NCBI GenBank assembly: GCA_039630245.1
Contig: JBCNVK010000004.1
Span: 5,403-69,402, forward strand
Source: Bacteroidia bacterium
GTDB lineage: Bacteria > Bacteroidota > Bacteroidia > SpSt-205
DNA: 64,000 nt
Direction of reading: 5' to 3'
Within the stretch, counting starts at the first letter, position 1. Every line of letters begins with the position of its first letter. The position numbers were made by a program, and so were the translations under genes. This document shows, in pieces, positions 4,123-61,288 of this stretch. The notes under the pieces are model-generated. The model was not told the origin of the DNA, ran no database searches, and saw nothing but the letters and a program-made list of their open reading frames with translations.

Positions 4123-4471
4123 GACGCTTGAGCTTGAGGGCTTTACCTACCCGACCCCGCATGTAAAAGAGACGGGCTCGACGGGTGCGATTGGGCCGTA
4201 ATACTTCCACCTTCAGAAGAAAAGGAGAATGCAGCGGCACAATCCGTTCTACCCCTATCCCGCCGGATACCTTACGCACGGTTACGGTTTCGCTAATCCC
4301 TCTCCCTCGGCGCTGAATGACCATGCCCTCAAAAACCTGAATGCGTTCCTTGCCGCCTTCCACAATCCGAAGGTGTAGCCGAACCGTATCCCCAGCTCGG
4401 AAGGAGGGTAAATCAGCCTTATGGTAAGGCGCATTTATAAGGTACTCCACCTCCCGCAAAAGATGGCTCAT
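4112..4471 (-). CDS. rplS: 50S ribosomal protein L19
   Basis: The 119-aa translation shows the typical L19 core ([51 protein letters not shown]). Confidence 0.92.
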
Positions 4472-4475
4472 GCCG

Positions 4476-4483
4476 CAAAGGTA
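4476..4483 (-). promoter_or_regulatory. Bacteroidota sigma-A -7 element TACCTTTG, 4 nt upstream of the rplS ATG. It is embedded in a perfect 8-bp/4-nt-loop inverted repeat (4475-4494).
   Basis: Minus-strand read ...TACCTTTGcggcATG. The same motif-plus-spacer architecture recurs at many starts in this window. Confidence 0.6.
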
Positions 4484-13778: not shown

Positions 13779-13786
13779 TACCTTTG
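13779..13786 (+). promoter_or_regulatory. TACCTTTG -7 element, 4 nt upstream of the valS ATG
   Basis: TTTACCTTTGccttATG. Confidence 0.6.
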
Positions 13787-13790
13787 CCTT

Positions 13791-16400
13791 ATGGAGAAAA
13801 ACTATACGGCCTTGCCGGTGGAAGCTCGCTGGCAAGCCGTGTGGGAAAGTCATAACCTCTACCGAAGCCTTCCCGATAACCGGCCAGCCTACGCTATCGT
13901 TATGCCGCCTCCTAATGTAACCGGCATCCTTCACATAGGCCATGTACTCAACAATACCATCCAGGATGTGCTGGCGCGCTACTACCGCCTCAAGGGCTAC
14001 AACGTCTGCTGGGTACCCGGTACGGATCACGCCTCCATCGCCACCGAAGCTAAGGTAGTAGCTCGCCTGGCGCAGGCGGGCTTAGACAAGCGCCAGCTGG
14101 GCCGAGAAAAGTTTCTGGAAAAAGCCTGGGAATGGACGCATGAGCATGGACAGATCATCGTTACGCAGCTCAAACGCTTGGGCGTGAGCGCCGACTGGAG
14201 CCGCTACCGCTTCACCTTAGACCCGCCTCTCTACCGCGCCGTACTGATGGCTTTCGTGCGCCTCTACCACGATGGGCTAATCTACCGTGGCAAGCGCCTC
14301 ATCCACTGGGACCCTGTAGCCCTCACGGCCCTCTCCGATGAAGAAGTCCTTTACAAAGAGCGCTCGGATAACCTTTACTATGTGCGTTACCCTTTGGAAG
14401 GGGGAGGCTACCTCGTGGTAGCCACCGTACGCCCTGAAACTATCCTTGCGGATGTGGCGGTAGCGGTACATCCAGCCGATGAACGTTACCAAGGCCTTAT
14501 AGGCCGGCGTGTGCGAGTGCCCCTTACAGACCGCTGGGTACCTATTATCGCCGATGAGGCCGTCGATCCAGAATTTGGTACAGGCTGCCTGAAGGTTACC
14601 CCTGCCCATGACCCAAAGGACTATGAAATAGGCCAGCGTCATGGGCTTCCGATTATAGACATTTTCACACCTGAGGCCTACCTCTCTGAGGCAGCGGGTA
14701 GGTATGCGGGCCTTTCCCGTGAAGCCGCACGCACCCGGCTGGTAGAAGACTTAGCTCGGGAGGGCCTGCTGGAGAAAGTAGTCCCCTATACCCACAAAGT
14801 AGGCCATTCCGAGCGTACGGATGCAATTGTAGAGCCGCGCCTTTCCGAGCAGTGGTTTGTACGGATGAAGCCTTTAGCCGAGCTGGCTTTACGCGCTGTG
14901 GAAAAGGGCGAAATCACGCTTGTGCCCGATCGCTTCTTAGGCACTTACCAGCACTGGCTAGAGCATGTGCGCGACTGGTGTATCTCGCGCCAGCTCTGGT
15001 GGGGCCATCGTATCCCGGCTTGGTATGCGCCGGATGGGAAGGTATTCGTGGCGCTTACGGTGGAAGAGGCCCAGGCCCAAGCCCAAGCGGCTGGCTATGA
15101 CCCCACCACTCTTCGCCAAGACGAGGATGTCTTAGATACCTGGTTTTCCTCTTGGCTCTGGCCGCTCAGCGTGTTTGATTTCTTTGAAGACCCCAAAAAC
15201 CCCGATTTCGCCTACTACTATCCCACGCAGGTCCTCGTTACGGCGCCAGAGATCCTCTTCTTCTGGGTAGCGCGCATGATTATGGCGGGGTACTACTTTG
15301 CCGGGAGAAAGCCTTTCTCGGTAGTGTACCTTCACGGAATTGTACGCGATAGGCAGCGCCGCAAAATGAGCAAATCCTTGGGCAATTCGCCTGACCCACT
15401 GGAGCTTATGGACCGCTATGGTACGGATGCCCTACGGCTGGGCATCCTCCTAAGTGCCCCCGCGGGTAATGACCTTCTTTTTGACGAGAGCCTCTGCGAA
15501 CAGGGACGCAACTTCTGCAATAAGCTGTGGAATAGCTTTCGCCTGCTGGCGAGCTGGGGGGAAAAAGGCAGTGAAGACTCCCCCACCCCGCTTCAGCAAA
15601 TGGCTGTTGCTTGGTTTTCGGCGCGCCTGCGCCAGCTTCAGGGTCAGGTAGAGACGCTCTTAGCCAGCTACCGCTTCTATGAAGCGGCTCATGAGCTGTA
15701 CCACGGGATTTGGGAGGACTTTTGCAGCTGGTATTTGGAGGCCCTCAAGCCCGCTCCTCCGAAAAGCCTCTTAGCCGAAGTAGAAGCCCAGGCCCTTCGG
15801 CTTCTCCAGCTTCTTCACCCCTTCGTGCCTTTTATTACGGAGGAGCTATGGCACCAGCGCACGGGTGCACCTCCTGAGGAAAGTATCGGTTTCACCGCCC
15901 TACCCGCAGCCGAGCCGCTAACCCCAGAGGAAACGGCACTCCTTACGCAAGTAGCACACGCTCAGCGCGTAATTTCGCGCCTGCGCGGCCTGCGGCAAAC
16001 CTTTGGGCTCTCGGGCCCGCTTCAGGTAGCCGTGCAAACCCCTTCACCCCAACCGAATGCCCTCGTCGCTGAATGGGCCCACCATTTCCTGCCCATCCAG
16101 AGCTGGACGTATGTGGATAAGCCTCTCCCTCAAGCGCTGCGTTTCGTTCTCCAGCAGGAAGCCTACTACATCCGCCTAGAGGGGACGCCCACCGAATGGA
16201 CTACCCTCCGAGAAAAGCTTCAAAAAGAGCTGGCCCAAGTAGAAAATTTTCTCCGCACAATTGAGGCGAAACTTTCTAATCCGGCCTTCCTCAGCCGGGC
16301 AGCACCCGAAATCGTAGCACGCGAAGAGAAAAAGTATGCCGATGTGCGGGCGCGCCACCAGCTTTTGTTAGAGCAATTAGCCGTAATGGAAAGCCTATGA
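13791..16400 (+). CDS. valS: Valine--tRNA ligase
   Basis: Class-I HIGH (PPPNVTGILHIGH) and KMSKS (KMSKSLGN) motifs. 869 aa with a C-terminal coiled coil. Confidence 0.95.
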   Translation: MEKNYTALPVEARWQAVWESHNLYRSLPDNRPAYAIVMPPPNVTGILHIGHVLNNTIQDVLARYYRLKGYNVCWVPGTDHASIATEAKVVARLAQAGLDKRQLGREKFLEKAWEWTHEHGQIIVTQLKRLGVSADWSRYRFTLDPPLYRAVLMAFVRLYHDGLIYRGKRLIHWDPVALTALSDEEVLYKERSDNLYYVRYPLEGGGYLVVATVRPETILADVAVAVHPADERYQGLIGRRVRVPLTDRWVPIIADEAVDPEFGTGCLKVTPAHDPKDYEIGQRHGLPIIDIFTPEAYLSEAAGRYAGLSREAARTRLVEDLAREGLLEKVVPYTHKVGHSERTDAIVEPRLSEQWFVRMKPLAELALRAVEKGEITLVPDRFLGTYQHWLEHVRDWCISRQLWWGHRIPAWYAPDGKVFVALTVEEAQAQAQAAGYDPTTLRQDEDVLDTWFSSWLWPLSVFDFFEDPKNPDFAYYYPTQVLVTAPEILFFWVARMIMAGYYFAGRKPFSVVYLHGIVRDRQRRKMSKSLGNSPDPLELMDRYGTDALRLGILLSAPAGNDLLFDESLCEQGRNFCNKLWNSFRLLASWGEKGSEDSPTPLQQMAVAWFSARLRQLQGQVETLLASYRFYEAAHELYHGIWEDFCSWYLEALKPAPPKSLLAEVEAQALRLLQLLHPFVPFITEELWHQRTGAPPEESIGFTALPAAEPLTPEETALLTQVAHAQRVISRLRGLRQTFGLSGPLQVAVQTPSPQPNALVAEWAHHFLPIQSWTYVDKPLPQALRFVLQQEAYYIRLEGTPTEWTTLREKLQKELAQVENFLRTIEAKLSNPAFLSRAAPEIVAREEKKYADVRARHQLLLEQLAVMESL

Positions 16401-19073: not shown

Positions 19074-19910
19074 CTAACGGTTTGCTTTACGCCACAGCCA
19101 GAAGCCCAAGCCGAAGGTGAGGAGCCATACGCCCAATTCGGCCCAGCTCATAGTCGCACGCCAGCCGAGGAGGGCATGGAAAATTCCTCCCAACCAGCCT
19201 TTATGGTGTAGAAGAGGGTAGTAAAGCCCTTCGTGGAAAGTGTAAGTCCAGGCATGGGCCGCAGGAGGCGTGGAAGTGGGGGGGAAAAGCCTCCAAGCCT
19301 TAGCTTCCTCTAAGGCCTCGGCCCACGCCCAGCGGCTGGAAAGAAGCTCTAAAAGTTCATGGGCGCCGTAGGCGGCCATCCCCGCCGCCATAAGAAGCAG
19401 CAAAACCGAGGTAATACGGAAAAATGGCCGCAGAGGCACGCGCCGACCATAGAGGAAAAGGGAAAGGCCTAACAGTACCGCTACCAAAAGCCCAGCAATC
19501 CCGCCTACCCAGGAGAGACTTTGCTGCATTTGCCATAGGGCGCGCAGGAAAATCGCCGTCTCTAAGCCTTCTCGTAGCACGGCGAAGAGGCTGGTGCCGA
19601 AAAGGAGCCAGCCTTCCGTAACCTGAGCCGCCGTCTGCAGCTCTTGGCGAAGGGTACCACTGCGCCTCTGCATCCACACCACCATGGAAATAAGAAGTAC
19701 CGCCGCACTAAAGGAGAGGGCTATCTCCCACACCACGTGGGCAGAGGCTACTCTATGTAAGACCCAGGCTCCCGCTATACTCAATACGACCGCGCTACCC
19801 ACACCCGCCCATATAAAGCCGCGCAGCGCTGGCGCCGCATACCGAGCTAAGATGCCTACTACAAGCGCCGCCTCCAGCGTCTCGCGAAACGTCACAAACC
19901 CCTCACCCAT
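19074..19910 (-). CDS. FTR1-family high-affinity iron permease (EfeU-like)
   Basis: Two REGLE-type motifs (RETLEAAL; LREGLETAIFL) in a 7-TM protein. Confidence 0.75.
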   Translation of the reverse strand: MGEGFVTFRETLEAALVVGILARYAAPALRGFIWAGVGSAVVLSIAGAWVLHRVASAHVVWEIALSFSAAVLLISMVVWMQRRSGTLRQELQTAAQVTEGWLLFGTSLFAVLREGLETAIFLRALWQMQQSLSWVGGIAGLLVAVLLGLSLFLYGRRVPLRPFFRITSVLLLLMAAGMAAYGAHELLELLSSRWAWAEALEEAKAWRLFPPTSTPPAAHAWTYTFHEGLYYPLLHHKGWLGGIFHALLGWRATMSWAELGVWLLTFGLGFWLWRKANR

Positions 19911-19943
19911 CCAGCAAAGGTAGCTATTTGGAATGAATACAAA

Positions 19944-24131: not shown

Positions 24132-24151
24132 GCTTTCTACCTTTGCGGCCG

Positions 24152-24448
24152 ATGGCAGCACCAGCGAAAAAGAAAAAACGCACGCGCTCGCGCACGGCTC
24201 TAAGACGCCAGCGCAAAAGCGAGCGGCGCCGTCTGCGGAATTTAGCCTGGAAAGCCCGTTATAGGCAAGCCCTGCGAGCCCTGCGGAACGAAACCGACCC
24301 GGCACGCCTTCCCGAACGTCTGCGGGCGGTACATTCCGTTTTAGATCGCCTAGGGCGGCGACGCATCTTCCACCCGAATAAAGTCGGTCGGCTCAAAGCG
24401 CGGCTGGCCCGTTGGGTAGCGGCTCGCCTAAGCGGAAAGCCCTCCTAA
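24152..24448 (+). CDS. Small Arg/Lys-rich basic protein of unknown function (98 aa from the ATG). The listed TTG start at 24143 is unlikely.
   Basis: An exact TACCTTTG promoter motif sits at 24138-24145 with a 6-nt spacer to the ATG. The ORF fills the gap between the flanking genes and ends 3 nt before the POT transporter start. Confidence 0.45.
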   Translation: MAAPAKKKKRTRSRTALRRQRKSERRRLRNLAWKARYRQALRALRNETDPARLPERLRAVHSVLDRLGRRRIFHPNKVGRLKARLARWVAARLSGKPS

Positions 24449-30266: not shown

Positions 30267-30998
30267 CTACTCGCGCAATCCTACGGCACGCAGAAGCTGC
30301 GGCGCATGCTCCCGACTGCACATATACACGCTGCCCGTAGTCAGGAGCACTTTATAGCGGCCAGAGAGCCAAGGCAGTACCTCCCGAACTGCGTCTAGGT
30401 TGATGAGCGCATCGCGGGCAATCCGAAGGAAGGGGGGCTGCGGCAGCTTTTCGGCTAGCTCTTGGAGAGTGTAGGCTCGGGTGCTATGCCGCTGTCCATC
30501 CCGCACTTCTACGTACAAGGTGCGCTCCTCTATGCAGACGCCTACTATCTCCTGCACGTTGAGAATGATATGGCCTTCTCGTCGGGGCAGGGCTATCTTG
30601 CCAGTCGGGGTCAGGGTGTTTGGCCGTTCCATCAGTCGCTGAAAAGCTCGCTGCAGCGCCTGCCGCAGCCGTTCCAAGGAAAAAGGCTTGAGGAGGTAAT
30701 CTACGGCCCCCCCTTCAAACGCTTTGACCGCATGTTCGGCATAGGCGGTAGTGAAAATCACTACTGGCGGATTAGGCAGGCTCTGCGCCGCATGCATGAG
30801 AGAGATACCATCTAAGCCAGGCATTTCAATATCTAGAAGGACTATGTCCCAGGGCTGCTCTTGGAGGTAGCGCAGGGCGGCCTCCCCATCTGGGGCTTCG
30901 GTAACCGCTAGCTCGCCTATTTGGCTGAGGTAGCGCTGGAGGAGGCGGCGCGCCGGCGCCTCATCCTCTACGACAAGTACCCGATAAGGTTTCACCAC
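30267..30998 (-). CDS. LytTR-family two-component response regulator
   Basis: REC domain (VLVVEDE ... DIVLLDIEMPGLDG) plus a C-terminal LytTR DNA-binding domain. Confidence 0.85.
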   Translation of the reverse strand: MVKPYRVLVVEDEAPARRLLQRYLSQIGELAVTEAPDGEAALRYLQEQPWDIVLLDIEMPGLDGISLMHAAQSLPNPPVVIFTTAYAEHAVKAFEGGAVDYLLKPFSLERLRQALQRAFQRLMERPNTLTPTGKIALPRREGHIILNVQEIVGVCIEERTLYVEVRDGQRHSTRAYTLQELAEKLPQPPFLRIARDALINLDAVREVLPWLSGRYKVLLTTGSVYMCSREHAPQLLRAVGLRE

Positions 30999-31565
30999 CT
31001 ATAATATACCGATTTCGGCTGGAAATGCAACTCCCAAAAGCCAGCCGCTTGTTTCCCGAAAGATTAGTCGGATGCGGCGCTGAGCACCTGCGCGCGTGAA
31101 ATGTATCTCTTTGCCGGTGAAAAACATATCACGGCAAAATGATATGGAGTCAAATTCAGAGCTCAAAAGCTTGTAGGCGGCTTCTTTAGCACACCAGAAG
31201 TGCCATTCTGTAACATAAGGAGGGCTAAGTATTTGGCGTTCGTGGTATTCGGTAAAGTAGAGCCATACATGGGGGGGAAAGGGGCGTTTTCTTTCTAGGT
31301 CTAGAGCGATGGGGAAAGAAGCGCAAGCCGCAGCAGCCCAGGGAAAGCTGTGACTAAGCGAAAAGTTAGGCAAAGGGGGCAAAGCAGTGCGAGCGGCGCG
31401 AGCGGCCAAAGCTTCTAACCGGCGGCGCGCATGCGTAATCTGGCGCATCCGGCTAGCTTCGGCAGGGGATAAATCCGCTTTTTTCCACAGCACCTCCTCG
31501 CGCTCTGTAATTTCCCACACGGCCCAAAAGGCCTCATTATAGGCTTCCCGGTATCTTAAAGGCAT
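30999..31565 (-). CDS. 4'-phosphopantetheinyl transferase (Sfp/EntD-type)
   Basis: WxxKEAxxK motif (FWCAKEAAYK). The gene runs straight into the response-regulator gene. Confidence 0.65.
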   Translation of the reverse strand: MPLRYREAYNEAFWAVWEITEREEVLWKKADLSPAEASRMRQITHARRRLEALAARAARTALPPLPNFSLSHSFPWAAAACASFPIALDLERKRPFPPHVWLYFTEYHERQILSPPYVTEWHFWCAKEAAYKLLSSEFDSISFCRDMFFTGKEIHFTRAGAQRRIRLIFRETSGWLLGVAFPAEIGIL

Positions 31566-31992
31566 GGCGCAAAAGTGGCACTTTCTACTCAGTGCGCCCT
31601 TGGAAGCCTCGCAGAGGGCAGCCCTAGCTGAAGCTTTAAGGGCTCACCTTGCCGACTGGCGGGCCCATGGACGGCCCGTAAGCTACACCCTGGCTTTTCC
31701 ATATGGGTGGTTTATAGAGGTGGCGGTGGAGGACCCGCTGACGGGCTGCGCCATAGACGCACTTTTTCGGCGGGTGCAATCCGCCACGGCTGTAGTGGGG
31801 CTTAGCCTCTGCTCTAGCGAATGGGTACTGGTAGTAGATGGAGATAATACTTTTATAGAAAAATTTTACGAAATAGTAAAAAAGTATCGCCTAGGCCAGT
31901 GGCCTCCTGAGCGCAAAGTGGTGGAGGTTCGGCCGGAGGGGCTGCGGTGCTGTGCGCTAGAGGCCAGCTATCTTGCCATTCACCTTAGGTAA
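31564..31992 (+). CDS. Hypothetical protein (142 aa). Its start codon overlaps the divergent PPTase start (CATG).
   Basis: Clean ORF. TAATG-coupled to the downstream glycosyltransferase. Confidence 0.45.
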   Translation: MAQKWHFLLSAPLEASQRAALAEALRAHLADWRAHGRPVSYTLAFPYGWFIEVAVEDPLTGCAIDALFRRVQSATAVVGLSLCSSEWVLVVDGDNTFIEKFYEIVKKYRLGQWPPERKVVEVRPEGLRCCALEASYLAIHLR

Positions 31993-33158
31993 TGCGCTTG
32001 GCCGTAATAGGTCCGCCGCGGGATGTGCATCTACGCCGGTGGGGAGAGGCGCTTCGGGCGGCGGGAGCCGAGGTGCTTTTCGTAGGGGTGGAGAAAGCCC
32101 CACCCGACCTAATTCCCTACCACTGTATAGGCCCTCCCGTAGAAAAGCCCAGCTTCTGGACTTTTTGGCAGCGCCGTCGGGCGCTCAGGGCTTTCCTAGT
32201 AGCGCAGCGCGTGGATTTGGCCCATCCCATTCATCTTACACCTTCAGGGGTGTGGGTGTGGCTTAGTGGCTTCCGCCCTTACCTGCCTTATGTGATGGGA
32301 GCGGACGTACTGGAGTATGGGCCTAGGCGACCGGCCTTAGGACGCAGCTGGAGCCTCCAGAGTGTGTCGCCCTCCCCTCTCCTTTACCTGCGCACCTTCC
32401 TGCGCCGGAAACTTATGCCACCGCTTTTACGGGCTACGCTAAGGCAGAGCCTAGCGGTAGCAGCCGATAACTACGAGCTTAGTTTTACATGCAAATTTTT
32501 TGTAAAAAGAAAAAAAATTATTGAACTCCCAGCTGGTATACGGGTGGTGGAGGGGGCGGCGCCTGAGCGGCGCGGCATTCTAGTAGGGCGCGGGACTACT
32601 TCCCTATACCAAGCGGACATTATTCTGGAGGGGGTGCGTCGCTACCTAGCGGAGGGGGGACGGCAGCCTATCTACTGGCTCAGGGGCCTCTACCCGCCCC
32701 ATCCTACTCTCCTGCGCCAAATCCGTCAAATAAGCCAGAAGTACGAAAATAGGTTTTATTTTTTTGAAAACATACTATCGCCGGCACGCCTTTGGCAGCT
32801 TTGGCAAGAGGTGGCAGCCTTTATCTCAGCCCCTGTGTATGACGGCTACAGCTACGCCGTAGCGGAAGGGCGCCTAGCTGGAAGCCTGCCAATTGTGAAC
32901 GCTATACCCGCCCATCTGGAAATTCTGACCCACGGCTATAACGCTTACATTGTAGAGCCTTTTACGGCGGTGCGTTTGGCTCAAGCCCTCCATGAAGTGG
33001 AGGAATGGCTAGCCGGTCCGCCCTTTTGGGCGGGTCCTAACGCCGAATGGGTGCGACGCTTCTCCGACTTAGCCCAGTCGGCCCGCTGGTTTCTCAGCTT
33101 TGTCCAAGAGAATTTACTACCTTTGCACAGGAACGGCGGGTATAGCTCAGGTGGTTAG
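31992..33158 (+). CDS. Glycosyltransferase (GT4-like). The 3' end overlaps tRNA-His by 24 nt.
   Basis: GT-B fold features with an EX7E-like region (AEGRLAGSLPIVNAIPAHLEILTHGYNAYIVEP). Confidence 0.55.
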   Translation: MRLAVIGPPRDVHLRRWGEALRAAGAEVLFVGVEKAPPDLIPYHCIGPPVEKPSFWTFWQRRRALRAFLVAQRVDLAHPIHLTPSGVWVWLSGFRPYLPYVMGADVLEYGPRRPALGRSWSLQSVSPSPLLYLRTFLRRKLMPPLLRATLRQSLAVAADNYELSFTCKFFVKRKKIIELPAGIRVVEGAAPERRGILVGRGTTSLYQADIILEGVRRYLAEGGRQPIYWLRGLYPPHPTLLRQIRQISQKYENRFYFFENILSPARLWQLWQEVAAFISAPVYDGYSYAVAEGRLAGSLPIVNAIPAHLEILTHGYNAYIVEPFTAVRLAQALHEVEEWLAGPPFWAGPNAEWVRRFSDLAQSARWFLSFVQENLLPLHRNGGYSSGG

Positions 33159-33211
33159 AGCGTCTGACTGTGGCTCAGAAGGTCGTCGGTTCGAATCCGA
33201 CTGCCCGCCCA
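33135..33211 (+). tRNA. trnH: tRNA-His (anticodon GTG) with the encoded G-1
   Basis: Manual fold of the 7-bp acceptor GCGGGTA/TGCCCGC. D arm GCTC-AGGTGGTTA-GAGC. Anticodon stem TCTGA/TCAGA with loop CTGTGGC. T arm GTCGG-TTCGAAT-CCGAC. Discriminator C73 and an extra 5' G-1, diagnostic of tRNA-His. Confidence 0.93.
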
Positions 33212-33708
33212 TGGGGGCCCCCCTCAACCGCGTAGAAGCGGCAGGGCTTCACACCATAGATGTGACCCAGCTGCTCCCCCTACCCCCCATACGCCCGTTG
33301 GATTTAGCCCAGTTTCTGGAAGAAGGTTTGATTCTACGGGAAAAGGTCTTTCGTGCCGCTCTGGCCCAGCACGACTGGCAAACCTACCAGGATGCCCTTG
33401 TACCTATCTTCGTCAGTACAGAGGCTATAGTTCCGCCTTGGGGCTTTCTCCTTGTTGGGATGTACTTGGCCCCTTACGCCCGCTACTACGGCGTAGGCCC
33501 CCCCGAAGCCCTCATAGAGCGCTACCAGCTCCTCCAGCTCCAAGAGCTTCCCTTAGAACCCTTTCGGGATCAGAAAATCCTCCTCAAGGGCTGCGCTAAT
33601 CTGTCCCCGGCCGTTCTTACTGAATTTTTTCGGCGCGTGATGCCAGTGGCACGCCTGGTCTTCTACGGCGAAGCCTGCTCCAGCGTGCCTATTTACAAGC
33701 GTAAATAA
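33211..33708 (+). CDS. Hypothetical protein (165 aa). Its ATG overlaps the tRNA-His 3' CA.
   Basis: The ORF track's longer start (33100) would run through the tRNA. The first in-frame ATG after the tRNA body is 33211. Confidence 0.5.
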   Translation: MGAPLNRVEAAGLHTIDVTQLLPLPPIRPLDLAQFLEEGLILREKVFRAALAQHDWQTYQDALVPIFVSTEAIVPPWGFLLVGMYLAPYARYYGVGPPEALIERYQLLQLQELPLEPFRDQKILLKGCANLSPAVLTEFFRRVMPVARLVFYGEACSSVPIYKRK

Positions 33709-33722
33709 ACCACTTCAAACCT

Positions 33723-34271
33723 ATGGGGAAAACCTTGCGACTTTTTTTGGTAGGTCTGATTGCCGCTGCGGGCTGCTTGCGTGAGCGGCGAGAGGGCGAC
33801 GAAACCGTAGGCCATGGCACTGTAACTACCCTTGAGTTGGGCCTTGTGAAAGGAAATGACACGATTTGGGGGCGATACAAAGACCCCGATGGGTATGGAG
33901 GTCGCCGGCCCTCCGTAGATACGCTACGCCCAGCCCCAAACACCGAGTACAGCTACTTTATCCGTCTGCGTAATGAAAGCGGCAACCCTCCCGAAGACCT
34001 TACCCAAGCCATAATAGAAGGCCAGAAAGATTACCACCGTTTCTTTTTCCTTTTTGAGCCGGAGGCCCTTGCGCAGGTGACCCCTCAGGATCAGGACAGC
34101 CGAGGCAAGCCTATAGGAGCACGGGGGAAATGGGTGCAGGGCCCCTCTTCCATCCCTTCTGGCCGGGTTCGGATCGTTTTGCGGCATTATCTCAGCGCAG
34201 CGGATAAAGATTACGGCCTTGAGCGTGGGAATACCGACATAGACGCTGTCATTTCAGTAAAAGCCCTTTAG
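33723..34271 (+). CDS. Lipoprotein of unknown function
   Basis: Signal peptide with lipobox (LIAAAGC). Confidence 0.5.
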   Translation: MGKTLRLFLVGLIAAAGCLRERREGDETVGHGTVTTLELGLVKGNDTIWGRYKDPDGYGGRRPSVDTLRPAPNTEYSYFIRLRNESGNPPEDLTQAIIEGQKDYHRFFFLFEPEALAQVTPQDQDSRGKPIGARGKWVQGPSSIPSGRVRIVLRHYLSAADKDYGLERGNTDIDAVISVKAL

Positions 34272-34274
34272 GTC

Positions 34275-34652
34275 ATGAGCCTTTCTACCCAGCGACACCT
34301 TCGTTCGCATGGGCTGCGCTGCACGGAGCCGCGCCGCTGCATAGTAGAGGCCCTCCGCAGCGGCCCTAAAACGCATGCAGAGCTCCTATGCCTCACACGG
34401 TTAGATCGGGTAACCGTGTATCGCAACCTGGTTACCCTACAACGAGTAGGCCTTGTGTATCGGGTGTATTTTCCAGGAAAACCCTCTCTCTACGTACTTT
34501 GCCAGCAGGGGCAGGGTACCCATGCGCATTTTTTTTGCCAGAAGTGTCATAAGGCGTTTTGCCTCCCCTCGGAAGCCGTCCAGCTAACGGGGGTTTGGGC
34601 GGGCCGTACCGAGCGGATTATCCTATTCGGGCAGTGCCCGGAGTGCGGCTAA
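34275..34652 (+). CDS. Fur-family metalloregulator (Fur/Zur/PerR-like)
   Basis: LRSHGLRCTEPRRCIVEAL ... TVYRNLVTL ... HAHFFCQKCHK ... CPEC, i.e. Fur DNA-binding and metal-site Cys/His pattern. Confidence 0.65.
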   Translation: MSLSTQRHLRSHGLRCTEPRRCIVEALRSGPKTHAELLCLTRLDRVTVYRNLVTLQRVGLVYRVYFPGKPSLYVLCQQGQGTHAHFFCQKCHKAFCLPSEAVQLTGVWAGRTERIILFGQCPECG

Positions 34653-35933
34653 AGCCTCCGCTACGAGAAAGAGGCTACCCGTCACCAATATGCCAGCGTA
34701 CTTCTCTAAGGCGGCTCGGACAGCTACCTCCACCGAGGGGTACACGGCGCCTAGATAGCCTAGAGGTTCCGCAAGAGCCCTGAGCCGCTCAGGGGGTAAA
34801 GCGCGCGGCGTCTGAGCGGCCGTAAAAAATACCTCTCCTGGCCAACCGCCCAGCGCCTTTAGCGCCGCCTCTACGGCTTTTTCGCGCGAAAAGCCTAGTA
34901 CCAGCGCCTGCGGCTTCATCGGTACATGCGAAAGGAACTGCCGTAAAGCCCAGAAAGCCGATTCGTTATGGGCCACATCGAGGAGAATCCAACGGTCTTT
35001 CTTTCGCACCCACTGCCCACGGCCATACAGAGGGGCTTCTCGGGCTGCCTGGCGAATCCCTCGGCGTAAAGCCATATCGGAAATCCTCCATCCCATCAGA
35101 CGCAGTACCTCTACGACCTGAAGAACTGTGGCAAGGTTATAGCCCTGATAGTCCCCCGTAAGGTCGCATTCCCATAGCGTGCCTGCTTTAGGGTCTCGAA
35201 AGAGCCGATACAGCGCGGCGCCCGATTCTACCCACCCTTCGGCTAGCAGGGGATAAGGGGTGATATAAAGTGGGGCCTGCCTGAGGGCTGCGGCCCGCCG
35301 GCAAGCCGTCAGCGCCGCTGGGGGTAACTCTGGCCCCAACACTACCGGCCGAAAAGGCTTTATAATCCCTGCTTTCTGAGCCGCGATGGCCTCAAGGGAG
35401 TGGCCCAGCACCTCCATGTGGTCCCATCCAATGGAAGTGATGACCGACAGAAGCGGGGAAACGATATTCGTAGCATCCCAAGTGCCCCCTAAGCCTACCT
35501 CTACTACTGCAATATCCACTGCCGCCTCGGCAAACCAGGCAAGGCTCAGGCCAACCGTGACCTCAAAAAAGGAGAGATTTTCAGCAGTTATGAAGTTTGC
35601 CCACCGCTCCAGAAAGGCATCTACCCAAGCGGCGGGCGGCTCCGCCCCATTTACCCGAAGCCGCTCGGTGAAGGTGAAGAAATGCGGCGAGGTATGAAAG
35701 CCTACTTTATAGCCGGCCTGGCGCAGGATATTGGCCAGCAGGGCAGCGACGGAGCCCTTCCCATTCGTGCCCGCTATGTGGAGGATAGGGTAGCGGCGAT
35801 GGGGATGGCCAAGGGCGGCATCCCATTTCTCTATGAAGGCTAGGGTTGGGTGGAGCGCTTTTCGGCCAGCCTGCTCATAAGCCTGCAAGCGCTCATACAG
35901 CCAGGCCTGCCACTCCGCTAGGGTGCGTGGCAC
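34623..35933 (-). CDS. folC: Folylpolyglutamate synthase/dihydrofolate synthase (Mur ligase family)
   Basis: P-loop HIAGTNGKGS and Mur-ligase middle/C-terminal domains. GTG start. Confidence 0.8.
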   Translation of the reverse strand: MPRTLAEWQAWLYERLQAYEQAGRKALHPTLAFIEKWDAALGHPHRRYPILHIAGTNGKGSVAALLANILRQAGYKVGFHTSPHFFTFTERLRVNGAEPPAAWVDAFLERWANFITAENLSFFEVTVGLSLAWFAEAAVDIAVVEVGLGGTWDATNIVSPLLSVITSIGWDHMEVLGHSLEAIAAQKAGIIKPFRPVVLGPELPPAALTACRRAAALRQAPLYITPYPLLAEGWVESGAALYRLFRDPKAGTLWECDLTGDYQGYNLATVLQVVEVLRLMGWRISDMALRRGIRQAAREAPLYGRGQWVRKKDRWILLDVAHNESAFWALRQFLSHVPMKPQALVLGFSREKAVEAALKALGGWPGEVFFTAAQTPRALPPERLRALAEPLGYLGAVYPSVEVAVRAALEKYAGILVTGSLFLVAEALAALRALPE

Positions 35934-35966
35934 CCTGCGAAGGTAGAGAAAGGCTACCTTTGTGGC

Positions 35967-37655
35967 ATGGAGCTTTTCCTTTCAGCCGCACAACGAGCTG
36001 AGCTATGGACTAAGCACCAGCCCCGCCTTCTTGCTGCGCGCAAAGCTTGGCAGCAGCGCACCTTTTGGGCCGCCTACCCCGAAGACCCCAAAAGCTACCC
36101 TGAAACAGCGGCCGCTCAGGGCGAAGCCGACTTTCAAGCTCAACTCCAAAAGCCCTTCCAAAGGCTTCTGCAGGAAAGTTCTACTTGGCTTACCTCCGAT
36201 GAAGTTTCTCCCTATACGCAAGTGCCCTTAGGCATAAGCTACCCCCAACCTTCACCTGATCGCCTTATCCAAAAGGCTGAAGCCGCTTTAGCCGTATGGC
36301 GCTGGGTACCTTGGAATGAACGGCTAGGGGTTCTTATGGAAAGCTTAGAGCGATTTGCTGAGCGGTTCTTTGAGGTAGCGCACGCCACGCTTCACACGAC
36401 AGGGCAAGCCTGGATGATGGCCTTTCAGGCCTCTGGTCCCCATGCGGCAGACCGGGCCATGGAAGCCCTAGCCGTGGCCTACCACGAGCTAGAGGCCATT
36501 CCCCCCCACGTCCGATGGGAAAAAGAAGCTGGCCGCAGCCGCATCGTCATAGAGAAATACTTTTTCCCTCAGCCGGAGGGGATCTCGCTTCACATTGGTG
36601 TCTCTACTTTTCCGGTTTGGAATACTTTGCCGGGCCTTTATGCCAGCTTAGCGGTGGGCAGCCCGGTTATCCTTAAGCCGCATCCGCGCGCCATATACCC
36701 TATCGCTATTGTAGTAGCGGTGCTTCAGCAAACCTTTGCGGACTATGGTCTGCCGCCCGAGATCGTCCAGCTTGCTGTGGATACCGTGGCCGCCCCTATC
36801 ACGAAGCTGCTCGCCGAACACCCCGCCATACGAATTATAGATTACACGGGCGGGCCAGAATTTGGGGCCTACTTGGAAAGCCTTCCAGGTAAAATCACCT
36901 TTCTAGAAAAAGCCGGCGTAAATGGCGTGCTTTTAGAAAGCGTAACCGACCTAGAGGCCGTGGCAAAGAATATAGCCTTTTCAGCCAGCCTTTACAGCGG
37001 GCAGATGTGCACCGCTCCGCAAAATGTGTATATCCCCCGCACAGGTGTGCGAACGCCGCAAGGCGTAGTTTCGTATGAGACCGTTACGGAAACGCTGCAA
37101 AAGGCCGTAGACGATTTAGCCGGTCATCCTAAGGCTGCGCCAGCCATTTTGGGGGCTTTGCAAAATGCTGGGGTGGCGGAGCGCATTGCACGCCTAAGCC
37201 AGCAGGTGCAGGTGCGCCGGCCAGCGCAGGCTTACGCTCATCCGCAGTTTGCTCAGGCACGCACCCTTACGCCTTTAGTGGCTGAGGTGGCGCAGCCAGA
37301 GGCTCCCGCCGCTCTCCACGAGCACTTCGGCCCTCGGCTCCTCTTTATCCCTGTCCGCAGCGCCGAGGAAGGCGTAGAAGCGCTCTGCCAGCTGGCGCGC
37401 ACGAAAGGCATGCTGGCCTGTGCCCTCTACACAACCGACCCTAGCTTTCAGACCCGAGCGGTTCGCCAGCTTGCCGAGGCTGGCGTAGCCCCGAGCCTCA
37501 ACTTCCATGGCCAGGCCTTCATCAACCAGAGCGTAGCATTTTCGGATTTTCACGGGACGGGAGCTAACCCAGCTGGTAACGCCTCCTTCACTGATACCAG
37601 CTTTATTGTCAAGCGCTTCCGCTGGCTGCAGGTGCGCCACTGCCTGGCCGGTTAG
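35967..37655 (+). CDS. Aldehyde dehydrogenase family protein (PaaN/PaaZ-like)
   Basis: ALDH catalytic Cys context (GQMCTAPQNVYIP). About 560 aa, as in PaaN-type enzymes. Confidence 0.55.
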   Translation: MELFLSAAQRAELWTKHQPRLLAARKAWQQRTFWAAYPEDPKSYPETAAAQGEADFQAQLQKPFQRLLQESSTWLTSDEVSPYTQVPLGISYPQPSPDRLIQKAEAALAVWRWVPWNERLGVLMESLERFAERFFEVAHATLHTTGQAWMMAFQASGPHAADRAMEALAVAYHELEAIPPHVRWEKEAGRSRIVIEKYFFPQPEGISLHIGVSTFPVWNTLPGLYASLAVGSPVILKPHPRAIYPIAIVVAVLQQTFADYGLPPEIVQLAVDTVAAPITKLLAEHPAIRIIDYTGGPEFGAYLESLPGKITFLEKAGVNGVLLESVTDLEAVAKNIAFSASLYSGQMCTAPQNVYIPRTGVRTPQGVVSYETVTETLQKAVDDLAGHPKAAPAILGALQNAGVAERIARLSQQVQVRRPAQAYAHPQFAQARTLTPLVAEVAQPEAPAALHEHFGPRLLFIPVRSAEEGVEALCQLARTKGMLACALYTTDPSFQTRAVRQLAEAGVAPSLNFHGQAFINQSVAFSDFHGTGANPAGNASFTDTSFIVKRFRWLQVRHCLAG

Positions 37656-45790: not shown

Positions 45791-45824
45791 GTGCAAAAAT
45801 AGGCGCAGAGGACCTGGGGTAGGC

Positions 45825-45832
45825 TACCTTTG
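45825..45832 (+). promoter_or_regulatory. TACCTTTG -7 element, 4 nt upstream of the carB GTG. The divergent lptB element TATTTTTG (minus strand, plus-strand 45794-45801) is 3 nt upstream of its ATG.
   Basis: A 46-bp divergent intergenic region holds both motifs. Confidence 0.55.
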
Positions 45833-53177: not shown

Positions 53178-54959
53178 CTAATCTAATTTCAATACGGCTA
53201 TGAAGGCCTCCTGCGGCACCTCTACCGACCCCACCTGACGCATGCGCTTTTTGCCTTCCTTCTGACGCTCCAGAAGTTTGCGCTTACGCGTGATGTCTCC
53301 ACCGTAGCACTTAGCCGTGACGTCCTTGCGCAGCGCCCGAAGGGTCTCCCGCGCAATCACCCGTCCATAAATAGCCGCCTGGATAGCTACCTCAAACTGC
53401 TGGCGCGGAATAAGCTCCTTGAGCTTCTGGCACAGCCGCCGACCCCAATCGTAGGCCTTGTCCCGGTGAATAATGCAGCTTAGCGCATCCACTCGCTCGC
53501 CATTCAAAAGAATGTCCATCCGAACCAGATCACTCGGCCTATAGCCAATAACCTCATAGTCCAGCGAGGCATACCCGCGCGAGAGCGACTTGAGCCGATC
53601 ATAGAAGTCAAAAATGATTTCAGCCAAAGGCATCTCAAATACCAGCTCCACCCGATTAGAGGCTAAGTAGGTTTGACTTTTGAAAATGCCTCGCCGACCG
53701 ATGCACAGCTCCATTAGAGGCCCTATGAAAGCGGCATCCGTAATAATCTGGGCCCGCACATACGGCTCTTCTAAATGGTCCAGCTTAGCCGGATCGGGGA
53801 GCTGAGCGGGATTGATGACTACGACCTTCTCGCCAGTGCGCAGGTAGGCGTGGTAAGGCACATTTGGCACCGTAGCCACCACTTCCATCCCAAACTCGCG
53901 CGCTAAGCGCTCCTGCACAATCTCCATGTGCAGAAGGCCTAAGAATCCCACCCGAAAGCCAAACCCCAGCGCAGCCGACGTCTCAGGCTCAAATCGGATG
54001 GCCGCATCATTGAGCCGCAGCTTCTCCAGCGCCTCCCGCAAGTCTTCAAACTGGTCTGCCTGTACTGGATAAAAGCCCGCAAATACCATTGGCTTCATTT
54101 CTCGAAAGCCCTTCAGCGGCTCTCGTGCAGGCCGTGAGGCGTCCGTAATCGTATCCCCTACCTTGATTTCCTGGATGTTTTTTATCCCAGCAATCACATA
54201 CCCCACCGAACCGCAGGGGATGAACGGCTGGAGCTGGCGCTGCGGCCTGAAGACGCCCACTTCTTCTACCACGTACTCCGCACCCGTAGCCATGAGCCTA
54301 ATCCGCATGCCCGGCTGCAAGACCCCTTCCTTGACGCGCACATACGCTACCGCTCCGCGATACGGATCAAACTGCGAGTCAAAAATAAGCGCCCGCAGGC
54401 TCTCCTGGGACTTATCCGCTGGCGGCGGGATGCGTGTCAAAATCGCCTTCAAAATCTCTTCTACCCCAATCCCCATTTTAGCGCTGGCGTAGATTACCTC
54501 CTCAGGGCGACAGCCTAGCAGTTCTACTAAATGCTCGCGCACCGCCTCCGGACGCGCCGCCGGCAGGTCAATCTTATTGATCACGGGAATAATCTCTAAA
54601 TCCTGCTCAATGGCCAGATAGAGGTTAGCTAGGGTTTGGGCCTGTACGCCCTGCGTGGCATCTACGACTAAAAGCGCGCCTTCGCAAGCCGCAATCGCCC
54701 GCGAAACCTCATAGGAAAAATCCACATGGCCCGGGGTATCTATGAGATTTAGGGTGTAGCCTTGATAGTGCATTTGGACCGGGTGGCTCTTGATAGTGAT
54801 GCCCTTTTCCCGTTCTAAGTCCATGCTATCCAGCACTTGCTCCATCATCTGGCGTGGGGGAATCGTAGCCGTAGCCTCTAATAGACGATCGGCTAAGGTG
54901 CTCTTGCCATGGTCTATGTGGGCAATAATGCAAAAATTCCGAATGGTCTCTGCCCCCAT
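53178..54959 (-). CDS. lepA: Elongation factor 4 (LepA)
   Basis: [23 protein letters not shown]1 motif, DTPGHVDF, and the LepA C-terminal domain. Confidence 0.95.
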
Positions 54960-54983
54960 GGGTCAAGCAAAGATAAGGACATG

Positions 54984-56065: not shown

Positions 56066-56073
56066 TACCTTTG
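56066..56073 (+). promoter_or_regulatory. TACCTTTG -7 element, 5 nt upstream of the bifunctional-nuclease ATG. It is half of the palindrome TACCTTTG-N9-CAAAGGTA (56066-56090).
   Basis: TACCTTTGaactaATGgCAAAGGTA. The downstream half, read on the minus strand, is a second TACCTTTG pointing toward the divergent GT2 gene. Confidence 0.55.
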
Positions 56074-56078
56074 AACTA

Positions 56079-56666
56079 ATGGCAAAGGTAGAAATGGAGG
56101 TTGTGGGCCTCCACCGCTCGCCTACGGAGTCTTACAATGCCTTCATTCTGGTGCTTAAGGAGCGCTACGGCGCGCGCCGCCTACCCATCGTCATCGGTCT
56201 GCCCGAGGCCCACGCTATCAATATCCACATGGAAAAAATCCAGCACCCCCGCCCACTTACCCATGACCTTTTTGTGAATGTGATGAACGAACTGAACGTG
56301 CGCCTTTTAGAGGTAGTTATTCACAAGCTGCAGGACTCTACTTTTTTCGCCTACCTTCTCTTGGAAAATAGCGAGGGCCAAATAGTGGAGGTAGATTGCC
56401 GGCCGAGTGATGGTGTAGCTTTGGCGCTGCGGGCCCGGGCTGCCATTTTCTGTGAAGAGGAAGTGCTTCAGAAAGCCGGTCAGCCTGGCCCAGAGGAAGA
56501 AGAAGAGTCGCCGTCCACTCGCCGTGCGCCGCGCAGCGTATCCGCCTTGCGTGAAGAGCTACAAAGGCAGCTGGAAGAGGCCCTGGCCCGAGAAGATTAC
56601 GAAAAAGCCGCAGAAATTCGAGACAAGCTCAAAAAGCTAGGCTTGGGCGGTTCAGAGTCCACCTGA
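56079..56666 (+). CDS. Bifunctional nuclease (DUF151) family protein with a C-terminal UVR motif
   Basis: DUF151 core (AFILVLKE ... RPSDGVALALR) and a UvrB/C-like EDYEKAAEIRDKLKKL. Confidence 0.7.
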   Translation: MAKVEMEVVGLHRSPTESYNAFILVLKERYGARRLPIVIGLPEAHAINIHMEKIQHPRPLTHDLFVNVMNELNVRLLEVVIHKLQDSTFFAYLLLENSEGQIVEVDCRPSDGVALALRARAAIFCEEEVLQKAGQPGPEEEEESPSTRRAPRSVSALREELQRQLEEALAREDYEKAAEIRDKLKKLGLGGSEST

Positions 56667-61275: not shown

Positions 61276-61288
61276 TACCTTTGCACCT

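Follow-up and report, generated by a model that had tools for sequence, protein, structure and literature searches.

A tRNA-His gene abutting the DUF2480 start codon in a group of Bacteroidia: a probable mRNA 5' end set by tRNA processing

Introduction

In mitochondria, the tRNA punctuation model of Ojala, Montoya and Attardi holds that RNase P and RNase Z (ELAC2) excise tRNAs from polycistronic transcripts and thereby release leaderless mRNAs. Mixed tRNA-mRNA operons also exist in bacteria, an example being thrU-tyrU-glyT-thrT-tufB of Escherichia coli. It is still debated whether bacteria physiologically translate leaderless mRNAs that arise by processing.

Primary leaderless mRNAs have been described in Actinobacteria, Deinococcus-Thermus and archaea (PMC4633059, PMC4007540, PMC6028130). 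Leaderless mRNAs are reported to be rare in Bacteroidota, at 3.7-5.5% in two species, while in a third species 13% of leaders measure 10 nt or less (PMC7366714, PMC9723704, PMC6847099).

Here we analyze a tRNA-His gene embedded in a row of protein-coding genes in a Bacteroidia bacterium. The window, that is, the whole stretch of DNA analyzed, is 64,000 nucleotides long. Other members of a group of Bacteroidia, for which metagenome assemblies are the main source, share the arrangement of tRNA-His and DUF2480 found there. Excision of the tRNA probably creates an mRNA that begins almost exactly at the start codon of DUF2480, as in mitochondria.

Results

The tRNA-His gene and its 3' end

The locus comprises the following features:

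31564-31992, + strand: 142-aa ORF, first gene of the upstream glycosyltransferase (GT) unit and outside the conserved tRNA module; no Pfam match
31992-33158, + strand: 388-aa GT-B/GT4-like ORF, with its stop codon TAG (33156-33158) in the tRNA D-loop
33108-33117, + strand: A-rich tract AGAGAATTTA, immediately preceding the -7 box
33118-33125, + strand: sigma-A (sigma-ABfr-type) -7 box TACCTTTG, inside GT codons 376-378
33130-33134, + strand: predicted transcription start (G at 33130 or 33131) and 4-5 nt pre-tRNA 5' leader
33135-33209, + strand: tRNA-His(GTG), with an encoded G-1 (33135) paired with C73 (33209); CCA not encoded
33210, + strand: spacer C between C73 and the start codon; an RNase Z-type cut is predicted between 33209 and 33210
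33211-33708, + strand: 165-aa DUF2480 protein, encoded by the first cistron of the tRNA-headed operon; near-leaderless translation predicted
33723-34271, + strand: 182-aa putative lipoprotein (MGKTLRLFLVGLIAAAGC...), a conserved downstream partner; no Pfam match
34275-34652, + strand: Fur-family regulator, 125 aa (PF01475, E 6e-11), last gene of the operon

This gene order had been reported in a preliminary description of the DNA, and it holds: the 142-aa ORF, the GT-like gene, the tRNA and the DUF2480, lipoprotein and Fur-like genes all lie on the plus strand with gaps of at most 14 nt. The 3' end of the Fur-like gene overlaps a convergent folC-like gene by 30 nt.

The tRNA-His(GTG) with its encoded G-1 is real, as judged from ARAGORN, the RF00005 score and covariation. 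ARAGORN and Rfam both recover it, the former as the only tRNA in the window (33136-33210, anticodon gtg) and the latter as an RF00005 match at 33136-33209 with 69.1 bits against a gathering score of 29. Read from the sequence, the acceptor stem has 8 bp, with G-1 at 33135 opposite the discriminator C73 at 33209, next to the G1-C72 pair (33136/33208). The cloverleaf consensus over seven relatives contains 22 pairs, five of them compensatory and none broken by substitution, so that the tRNA itself carries compensatory changes between loci. Two rows of this covariation alignment end one base short, at the G-1:C73 pair, which is retained in all five relatives whose aligned stretch reaches that column.

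The downstream ATG had been said to use the A of the tRNA 3' CA. The ATG is indeed at 33211-33213, but the 3' end reads C73-C-A(TG), and positions 74-76 (CCA) are not encoded in register. Only in seven relatives, those with CCGCC-CC-ATG, does the ATG begin with a true A76. Since the base following C74 varies between close relatives (none, T or C), there is no selection for CCA at the DNA level. A tRNA-Asn at locus L102, the other of the two clade tRNA genes seen in all, likewise lacks CCA, and its next gene is on the opposite strand. At the seven loci with an encoded CCA, one transcript cannot give both an intact tRNA 3' end and the AUG, a conflict avoidable only if cleavage occurs upstream of A76.

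The glycosyltransferase overlap

The GT ORF overlaps the tRNA by 24 nt, as first described. Its frame has no in-frame stop before the TAG, which lies in the D-loop context GGT TAG AGC. Two of the three reading frames that lead into this tRNA hit a stop within 24 nt, and the overlap is therefore unremarkable in itself. Homology with GT orthologues ends at residue 375 (nt 33116), 19 nt before G-1. The last 13 residues (LPLHRNGGYSSGG, 33117-33155) are unconserved and are encoded by the tRNA promoter and the 5' part of the tRNA. The suggestion that orthologous GT proteins might end before the tRNA is thus borne out for the homology, which stops at 33116, but not for the ORF, which has no stop there and still enters the tRNA. 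The window protein itself scores 20.8 and 17.2 bits against Glycos_transf_1 and Glyco_trans_1_4, below the cut-offs of 27 and 26.4, whereas its orthologues (52-58% identity) carry PF00534, PF13692 and PF13477. The 142-aa ORF was found in the window and at locus L081 only.

Genome rearrangement and compaction brought about the overlap as a side effect, and the D-loop merely supplies the stop codon. We considered whether termination at the GT stop (33158) could be coupled to initiation at the ATG, 52 nt further on, and rejected the idea: it is implausible across a folded tRNA, and it is inapplicable to loci whose upstream gene ends before the promoter.

A Bacteroidota-type promoter motif precedes the tRNA

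The preliminary description saw no promoter-like motif before the tRNA because the sigma-70 consensus does not apply to Bacteroidota; our own sigma-70 scan of positions 30800-35000 also returned nothing relevant. A consensus Bacteroidota -7 box does occur at 33118-33125. This perfect box (TACCTTTG) lies 9 nt before G-1, and all 21 loci (the window and 20 related ones) have TAYYTTTG at 8-9 nt upstream of G-1. Across the window the -7 motif is enriched, with 52 occurrences against 26.8 expected, a count reached in none of 100 shuffles. Conservation between loci starts only at the A-tract and the -7 box. At the position of the tract the aligned relatives have a conserved A-run (AAAAAGTC / AAAAACTTTG), and AT-rich motifs around -18 have been reported for Bacteroidota promoters (PMC6847099).

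The -7 box covers positions -12 to -5, and transcription begins 4-5 nt beyond its G (PMC6847099); most loci have a purine as the fifth nucleotide past the box. A -33 TTTG at the canonical spacing, about 19-21 nt upstream of the -7 box, is not conserved among the relatives: the TTTG at 33099-33102 in the window is only 15 nt from the box and is not shared by them. F. johnsoniae likewise has a weak -33 element or none (PMC6847099).

A separate DUF2480 promoter inside the tRNA was considered and rejected: between 33126 and the ATG at 33211 there is no TAnnTTTG, and DUF2480 thus lacks a box of its own. An intrinsic-terminator scan found no terminator-like site between 31564 and 33135. Read-through from the GT operon is for this reason very likely to occur as well, in which case the tRNA promoter would not be the sole source of transcripts.

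The DUF2480 start codon

The protein encoded after the tRNA is a full-length match to DUF2480 (PF10652; E 4.8e-45, 153.8 bits against a gathering score of 25; residues 5-164 on profile positions 4-165 of 165). Its ATG (33211-33213) lies one base past C73; the N-terminus aligns with 28 homologues, and across the phylum homologues begin at the residue that this ATG encodes. The next in-frame candidate, a GTG at codon 17, would delete the conserved N6, V8 and L13. The preliminary description had left room for a mis-drawn GT 3' end or downstream start. Neither boundary moves: the GT frame has no stop before 33156 and the DUF2480 start fits both the homologues and the Pfam profile. Nor does the downstream ORF begin well after the tRNA; its start abuts it.

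There is no Shine-Dalgarno sequence or A-rich leader before this ATG. The preceding 75 nt are tRNA, the last 14 reading CCGACTGCCCGCCC, whereas the ATG of the lipoprotein gene (33723) is preceded by A-rich sequence. Folding of the predicted transcript (33130-33290) gave the acceptor and T arms with an overall z-score of -0.58, and the pairing around the AUG depended on how the fragment was cut, which makes it uninformative. Gene callers mis-annotate this junction in practice: among the top 31 DUF2480 database entries, seven carry an N-terminal extension that is translated tRNA T-arm (MAQKVVGSNPTTRP-), and the calls for two unrelated genes upstream run into the tRNA.

The tRNA-DUF2480 module is conserved while its upstream neighbor varies

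Close relatives were obtained by exact-protein look-ups and a DNA-pattern scan of metagenomes, and the resulting loci are partly redundant. A DUF2480 profile scan of a genome collection gave 80 loci, almost all distant (34-44% identity); none of the 80 has a tRNA within 4 kb of DUF2480, and they serve as a negative control.

The unit -7 box, 8 or 9 nt, tRNA-His, 1 or 2 nt, DUF2480 start recurs in 20 related loci, among which DUF2480 identity falls to about 52%. The spacer between tRNA and ATG is 1 nt in two loci (the window and L081) and 2 nt in 19. Given such conservation in 20 other loci, the abutting start codon is not due to chance. The upstream neighbor is of six unrelated kinds (GT, RimM, Methyltransf_21, Bax1-I, glutamine synthetase III or SDH_beta). 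Its stop lies 0-33 nt from the tRNA in most loci, with gaps of 320 nt in L086 and 118 nt in L101. The downstream block is conserved, either as DUF2480-(Band7)-lipoprotein-Fur or as DUF2480-TonB-receptor, and the lipoprotein gene is syntenic in L081-L084, L087 and L101. The row of six genes had been taken for one unit, a view that these loci do not support: only tRNA-His, DUF2480 and the downstream genes stay together. As the unit recurs in 20 loci with six upstream genes, the tRNA belongs with the downstream operon. The linkage is nonetheless dispensable, since DUF2480 stands without the tRNA in L001 (69% identity), which belongs to the clade.

Promoter boxes next to start codons are common in the clade

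Elsewhere in the window the geometry is TAHHTTTG-N4-ATG. In the clade, 47%, 59% and 53% of TAHHTTTG boxes have an ORF of at least 80 aa starting 2-9 nt after them (mode 4). The same geometry holds for 10% of boxes in 79 of the distant Bacteroidota loci, the profile-scan loci reused as a contrast set, and for 5.6% at random positions; loci that share genes with the window are non-independent samples in this statistic. The window genes with this arrangement are genuine; they include valS, rpsT, rpmE, rplS, lepA and FTR1, and their N-termini match the starts of the Pfam profiles. Because about half of the -7 boxes sit 2-9 nt before a start codon, leaderless mRNAs look like the norm in this clade.

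Discussion

Neither a terminator nor a promoter fits into the 1-2 nt that precede DUF2480, and the tRNA must therefore share a transcript with protein-coding RNA. The earlier proposal that the tRNA is released from a polycistronic mRNA stands to that extent, but the tRNA has its own -7 box in all 21 loci. Our preferred reading, which we consider probable, is that the tRNA and DUF2480-lipoprotein-Fur are co-transcribed and that RNase P and RNase Z-type cuts release the tRNA and an mRNA with a leader of 1-2 nt, which would make the locus a bacterial analogue of mitochondrial punctuation. The tRNA-His gene would head its own transcription unit: the sigma-A promoter with TACCTTTG in the last GT codons would start transcription about 4-5 nt before G-1, and RNA polymerase would pass through the tRNA into the DUF2480, lipoprotein and Fur-like genes. 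RNase P would trim the short leader and retain G-1. An RNase Z-type cut after C73 would then free the tRNA, to which CCA would be expected to be added post-transcriptionally, given that it is not encoded. The same cut would yield a 5'-monophosphate mRNA starting with C-AUG (CU-AUG or CC-AUG in relatives). Since most clade promoters appear to start transcripts on the start codon or a few bases away from it, this near-leaderless mRNA would be a normal substrate for translation, and the GC-rich, structured precursor a poor one. A Pfam scan of the other ORFs in the window found no genes for RNase Z, the RNase P protein or the CCA-adding enzyme. A 5'-monophosphate trailer may also be degraded rapidly instead of being translated.

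A stronger version goes further: the clade would have largely switched to leaderless expression, tRNA-His would act as a removable 5' cap, and the RNase Z cut would be obligatory for a translatable DUF2480-lipoprotein-Fur mRNA. We hold this only tentatively, at slightly worse than even chances.

Several other readings start from the same evidence. Transcription from the tRNA promoter could be accepted while the tight junction is ascribed to compaction only, with no role in releasing a leaderless mRNA; DUF2480 would then be translated by ordinary internal initiation on a precursor left unprocessed or processed in another way, or the tRNA would serve mainly as a structured 5' end that confers stability. 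The clade genomes are very compact, as the short distances from most upstream stops to the tRNA illustrate, and translation evidently needs no nearby 5' end for intra-operon genes such as those of the lipoprotein and the Fur-like regulator. A neutral process nevertheless fails to explain an invariant 1-2 nt spacer over 21 loci with about 50% protein divergence, when the other side of the tRNA tolerates the long gaps of L086 and L101. Moreover, the 20 nt before the ATG form a GC-rich acceptor/T stem, unlike the A-rich unstructured stretch favored in Bacteroidota (PMC6847099), and we regard compaction without processing as unlikely. The preliminary description put forward a promoterless tRNA excised from a 142aa-GT-tRNA-DUF2480-lipoprotein-Fur mRNA, which would couple tRNA supply to the operon. 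The single strand, the overlapping or near-zero junctions throughout and the read-through transcripts made probable by the lack of a terminator-like site between GT and tRNA speak for it. It is rendered improbable by a -7 box that keeps a fixed distance in every one of the 21 loci, within coding and intergenic upstream DNA alike, and by six kinds of upstream gene, one of them 320 nt away in L086. The supply of tRNA-His is also unlikely to hang on a glycosyltransferase operon, and an RNase P cut would remove the GT stop codon.

One might also suppose that tRNA maturation and mRNA function exclude each other, so that the downstream RNA would be mostly a discarded trailer and DUF2480-Fur weakly or incidentally expressed. 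In its favor, seven loci have an encoded A76 that doubles as the first base of the ATG, exonucleolytic trimming of the 3' end would remove the start codon, and 5'-monophosphate RNAs are preferred decay substrates. This idea appears very improbable when set against conserved, intact ORFs for DUF2480 and its partners that have no alternative promoter box, a start codon held at 1-2 nt in all loci, and a variable spacer base which indicates that an encoded CCA is not under selection. Finally, the contact could be an annotation artefact, with the true genes not touching the tRNA. The end of GT homology 19 nt before G-1 and seven demonstrably mis-called DUF2480 database entries lend this some color, but the GT frame runs without a stop up to 33156, the DUF2480 ATG fits the first residue of its homologues with Pfam profile position 4 at residue 5, and the GTG start at codon 17 costs conserved residues (N6, V8, L13); we give an artefact almost no credence.

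Returning to co-transcription followed by cleavage on both sides of the tRNA, its truth would mean a natural bacterial leaderless mRNA generated by RNA processing and not by transcription initiation, at a junction that is fixed by evolution and easily tested. A Fur-family regulator and an Fe-S-associated protein would be tied to the promoter of a tRNA-His gene that may be the only one in the genome. Should the removable-cap version hold, the precursor of an iron- or Fe-S-related operon would be untranslatable, the leaderless mRNA made by processing would be a physiological one, and the locus would give bacteria a natural counterpart of the tRNA punctuation seen in mitochondria. The clade would also represent a Bacteroidota lineage with apparently leaderless ribosomal-protein, valS, lepA and many other genes, contrary to the picture from Bacteroides and Flavobacterium (3.7-13% leaderless or short-leadered). 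A literature search found no published bacterial tRNA abutting a leaderless ORF; most subscription journals lay outside its coverage, so absence is unproven.

The locus can be placed among the described systems as follows. Its promoter resembles Bacteroidota sigma-A promoters (-33 TTTG / -7 TAnnTTTG) in its perfect, conserved -7 box and the A-rich tract upstream, and differs from them in having no conserved -33 TTTG at the canonical spacing and in lying inside the preceding coding sequence. With primary leaderless mRNAs it shares a start codon at or within a few nucleotides of the predicted 5' end, and the rest of the window shares with them a promoter box at a short fixed distance from the ATG; their 5' ends, however, arise by initiation and carry a triphosphate, whereas that of DUF2480 would be processed and carry a monophosphate. 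As in the E. coli tufB operon, tRNA gene and protein gene would be co-transcribed, with the tRNA at the 5' end, and separated by processing, but tufB is set off by roughly 100 bases and has a Shine-Dalgarno leader, where this locus has 1-2 nt and no ribosome-binding leader.

The mitochondrial system offers a further comparison. There too the tRNA abuts the start codon (0-3 nt between them, 1-2 nt here), its excision sets the mRNA 5' end, as it would here, and translation is adapted to 5'-terminal start codons, as it apparently is in this clade; an upstream ORF, here GT, would likewise lose its 3' end to RNase P. Unlike in mitochondria, the tRNA has its own promoter directly upstream and there is no polyadenylation to complete stop codons. 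The present case, as predicted from sequence, concerns one junction in a free-living bacterium, whereas mitochondrial punctuation is a genome-wide system.

Results

A tRNA-His gene abuts the DUF2480 start codon

The tRNA-His(GTG) is the sole tRNA that ARAGORN finds in the 64-kb window, and it scores 69.1 bits against the Rfam tRNA model (gathering score 29). Read directly from the sequence, its acceptor stem contains G1-C72 (33136/33208), and G-1 is encoded at 33135, facing the discriminator C73 at 33209. An encoded G-1 opposite C73 is the signature of bacterial tRNA-His, and the identification made in the preliminary description is thus confirmed. Across relatives, five stem pairs show compensatory change, and substitutions have broken no pair. 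ORF and Pfam reading likewise bears out the six-gene row on one strand that had been described.

Features around the tRNA (plus strand)
ATG at 31564, 142-aa ORF
31992-33158, 388-aa glycosyltransferase-like ORF
33118-33125, -7 promoter box TACCTTTG
33136-33210, tRNA-His(GTG)
33211-34652, DUF2480 gene (165 aa, ATG at 33211), 182-aa putative lipoprotein gene and Fur-like gene

C73 is directly followed by C-A-T-G, so that CCA is not encoded in register and a single base separates the tRNA from the ATG. The start codon at 33211-33213 does abut the tRNA, as had been noted, but it does not use the A of a 3' CA. The DUF2480 ORF matches PF10652 over its full length (E 4.8e-45, profile positions 4-165 of 165 from residue 5), and its N-terminal residues line up with those of 28 phylum-wide homologues.

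On the other side, the glycosyltransferase-like ORF has, as previously reported, no in-frame stop before the TAG at 33156-33158 in the tRNA D-loop, and therefore overlaps the tRNA by 24 nt. Seventeen orthologues align as far as ...FVQENL (residue 375, nt 33116), beyond which their tails are unconserved and 0-20 residues long; the window protein ends in a 13-residue tail, LPLHRNGGYSSGG, whose codons come from the -7 box (cta cct ttg = LPL) and the 5' portion of the tRNA. Conservation thus stops before the tRNA, exactly where its promoter starts, although the window ORF still runs to 33158. Two of the three frames in which an ORF could enter the tRNA reach a stop within 24 nt, and a Methyltransf_21 ORF unrelated to the glycosyltransferase ends at the same TAG in two relatives; the D-loop TAG merely supplies a stop. 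A terminator scan found no terminator-like site between the glycosyltransferase gene and the tRNA, which makes read-through transcripts likely. RNase P cutting of such RNA would, we infer, strip the last eight glycosyltransferase codons and the stop, at a cost.

Further upstream (31540-31600), the 142-aa ORF (plus, ATG 31564) and an ACPS-family gene (minus, ATG 31565) diverge from start codons that overlap by 2 nt and share the palindrome CATG. A near-consensus box lies 4 nt before each start, TATCTTAA (plus, 142-aa ORF) and CACTTTTG (minus, ACPS-family gene), within the first codons of the opposite gene, which suggests face-to-face overlapping leaderless promoters.

A Bacteroidota-type promoter precedes the tRNA

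DUF2480 is a Bacteroidota family, and the top homologues of both the DUF2480 and glycosyltransferase proteins come from 'Bacteroidia bacterium' MAGs. In this phylum sigma-A recognizes a -7 element, TAnnTTTG, instead of -35/-10 boxes; it spans -12 to -5, and transcription starts 4-5 nt past its G (PMC6847099, PMC7366714, PMC9723704). The window holds 52 such motifs against 26.8 expected, a count reached in none of 100 shuffles. One of them, TACCTTTG at 33118-33125, lies 9 nt 5' of G-1. The earlier claim that the tRNA is not preceded by any promoter-like motif is thus wrong for Bacteroidota; a scan with the sigma-70 consensus, which is not the motif of this phylum, missed the box.

Two further pairs of boxes serve divergent genes: TACCTTTG-N9-CAAAGGTA at 56066-56090, where opposite-strand boxes stand back to back as a 25-nt inverted repeat, and TATTTTTG (minus) with TACCTTTG (plus) at 45794-45832, back to back and 24 nt apart. 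In the related locus L102, a tRNA-Asn(GTT) (815-900), CCA-less like tRNA-His, follows TATCTTTG by just 4 nt, which places the predicted transcription start on the mature 5' end. This single example is predicted to be a "leaderless tRNA", for which RNase P cleavage would be unnecessary; the tRNA-His has 8-9 nt.

The promoter, tRNA-His and DUF2480 form a conserved unit

Nine related loci (L081-L087, L101, L102) were obtained by exact-protein look-ups of DUF2480 homologues (59-92% identity), and eleven more (L088-L098) by a DNA-pattern scan of metagenomes; among the latter is a divergent subgroup, with a DUF2480 similar to homologues ~52% identical to the window protein. In every one, tRNA-His(GTG) immediately precedes the DUF2480 start codon, which is GTG in three loci and ATG in all others. 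C73 is separated from the start by C in two loci (window, L081), by CT in 12 and by CC in seven. TAYYTTTG, preceded by an A-rich tract, lies 8-9 nt before G-1 in every locus, and sequences 5' of this tract are unrelated in alignment. The upstream gene is glycosyltransferase-like solely in the window and L081; elsewhere it encodes RimM (L082), Methyltransf_21 (L083, L087), Bax1-I (L084, L085, L102), glutamine synthetase III (L086, 320 nt away) or an SDH_beta-domain protein (L101). Constant promoter, tRNA and DUF2480 alongside varying upstream genes argue that the conserved unit is the promoter, tRNA-His and DUF2480 operon, an arrangement specific to the clade by this comparison, and that the upstream gene is incidental. 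No tRNA was found near DUF2480 in 81 loci of other Bacteroidota (34-44% identity), and in the clade member L001 (69% identity) DUF2480 overlaps folE instead of having tRNA-His before its start.

Within the clade, (Band7)-lipoprotein-Fur-like genes or a TonB-dependent receptor gene lie downstream of DUF2480. In Flavobacteriia (L099, L100) it is the last gene of the suf Fe-S assembly cluster, SufBD-SufS-SufE-FeS_assembly_P-DUF2480. The DUF2480 protein has two invariant cysteines, C128 and C156; no PDB entry is a significant neighbour of its AlphaFold model (pLDDT 89.8). The Fur-like gene (plus) and a convergent folC-like Mur-ligase gene (minus) share 30 nt at their 3' ends (34623-34652), another sign of extreme compaction, and no terminator-like structure lies between them.

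The clade appears rich in leaderless genes

The start codon of an ORF of at least 80 aa lies 2-9 nt past 19 of the 52 TAnnTTTG motifs in the window, compared with 5.6% of random positions. With the stricter motif TAHHTTTG, used for comparison between locus sets, such starts follow 47% of boxes in the window, 59% in L081-L087, 53% in L088-L098 and 10% in 79 distant Bacteroidota loci. Spacing in the clade peaks sharply at 4 nt, so that the predicted transcription start falls on the A of ATG; in distant loci it is mostly 10-40 nt. A Pfam scan covered the 18 window candidates of the TAHHTTTG subset. About 17 are genuine genes with a box 2-8 nt (mode 4) before the start, and N-termini match Pfam profile starts for valS, rpsT, rpmE, rplS, lepA, carB, FTR1, an aldehyde dehydrogenase and others. 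The spacing is 5-6 nt (implied leader 1-2 nt) in five of the 18. One candidate, at 62430, was a false positive inside a RelA/SpoT ORF.

Leaderless candidates with a TAHHTTTG box before the start
4471-4483, minus strand, rplS
13779-13793, valS
19910-19922, minus strand
24138-24154, rpsT
35955-35969
54959-54975, minus strand, lepA
61276-61291, rpmE

From this geometry and the genuine genes behind it, a large share of the clade's operons appears to be expressed as leaderless mRNAs. Leaderless mRNAs are reported to be rare in Bacteroidota (PMC9723704, PMC7366714, PMC6847099). A 1344-aa ORF on the minus strand (88-4122), with TPR repeats and a C-terminal CHAT protease domain (PF12770, E 4.5e-59), shares 11 nt with the rplS gene.

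Discussion

The locus is best described as a putative tRNA-headed operon whose first ORF is placed to become a leaderless mRNA when the tRNA is excised, conserved in a Bacteroidia clade in which leaderless genes look unusually common. Transcription would begin 4-5 nt 5' of G-1, at ~33130. One RNA would carry tRNA-His and DUF2480-lipoprotein-Fur, because there is no space for a terminator or promoter between tRNA and DUF2480; the motif scan of the window found no -7 box within the tRNA. RNase P would take off the short 5' leader, and an RNase Z-type endonuclease would cleave 3' of C73, as is expected for tRNA precursors without CCA. The CCA-adding enzyme would finish the tRNA; position 75 is absent, T or C among close relatives, which argues against selection for CCA in the DNA itself. 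The remaining 5'-monophosphate trailer would be a near-leaderless DUF2480 mRNA, and an mRNA starting C-AUG or CU-AUG would be a normal template against such a leaderless-rich background. In the unprocessed precursor the AUG lies against the GC-rich 8-bp acceptor helix, without the A-rich, unstructured upstream context used in Bacteroidota initiation (PMC6847099), and processing should therefore switch translation on. We infer every step from the transcription start onward and consider the whole scheme probable.

Compaction alone could account for the junction, with co-transcription but no part for leaderless release. We think this unlikely, as the spacer is invariant at 1-2 nt although the opposite side of the tRNA accommodates 118-320 nt. 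The promoter-less polycistron first proposed is more doubtful still: read-through probably contributes, but the conserved -7 box and the varying upstream genes contradict it, and the earlier interpretation is supported only in part. That the tRNA matures at the expense of the mRNA seems to us quite improbable. Least credible is the earlier suggestion that the glycosyltransferase end and the DUF2480 start were mis-drawn, since both boundaries hold in the window. Public gene calls nonetheless mis-handle this junction. Seven database DUF2480 entries (P0002, P0007, P0009, P0016, P0017, P0021 and P0026; 179-184 aa) begin with an extra N-terminal stretch, MAQKVVGSNPTTRP-, produced by translating the T-arm and acceptor of the tRNA, and the Methyltransf_21 genes of L083 (4084-4989) and L087 (2132-2989) are called into the tRNA to the D-loop TAG.

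A tRNA-headed operon of this kind is moderately surprising and cheap to test; its support so far is comparative sequence evidence. No bacterial tRNA abutting a leaderless ORF came to light in the literature searched; coverage being incomplete, this is suggestive. In classical bacterial tRNA-mRNA operons such as thrU-tufB the genes are co-transcribed, as proposed here, but the spacer is long and bears a Shine-Dalgarno sequence. Actinobacteria and Deinococcus translate primary leaderless mRNAs in the mode proposed for DUF2480, but the 5' ends of those mRNAs have a different origin. Among known systems, mitochondrial tRNA punctuation comes nearest: there, RNase P and RNase Z cut out the tRNAs, and the mRNAs that remain have leaders of 0-3 nt. 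The likeness is one of geometry, which the junction matches, and we class the locus as an analogue rather than a member. The proposed operon is a variant that would combine known tRNA-mRNA co-transcription, tRNA punctuation and leaderless translation.
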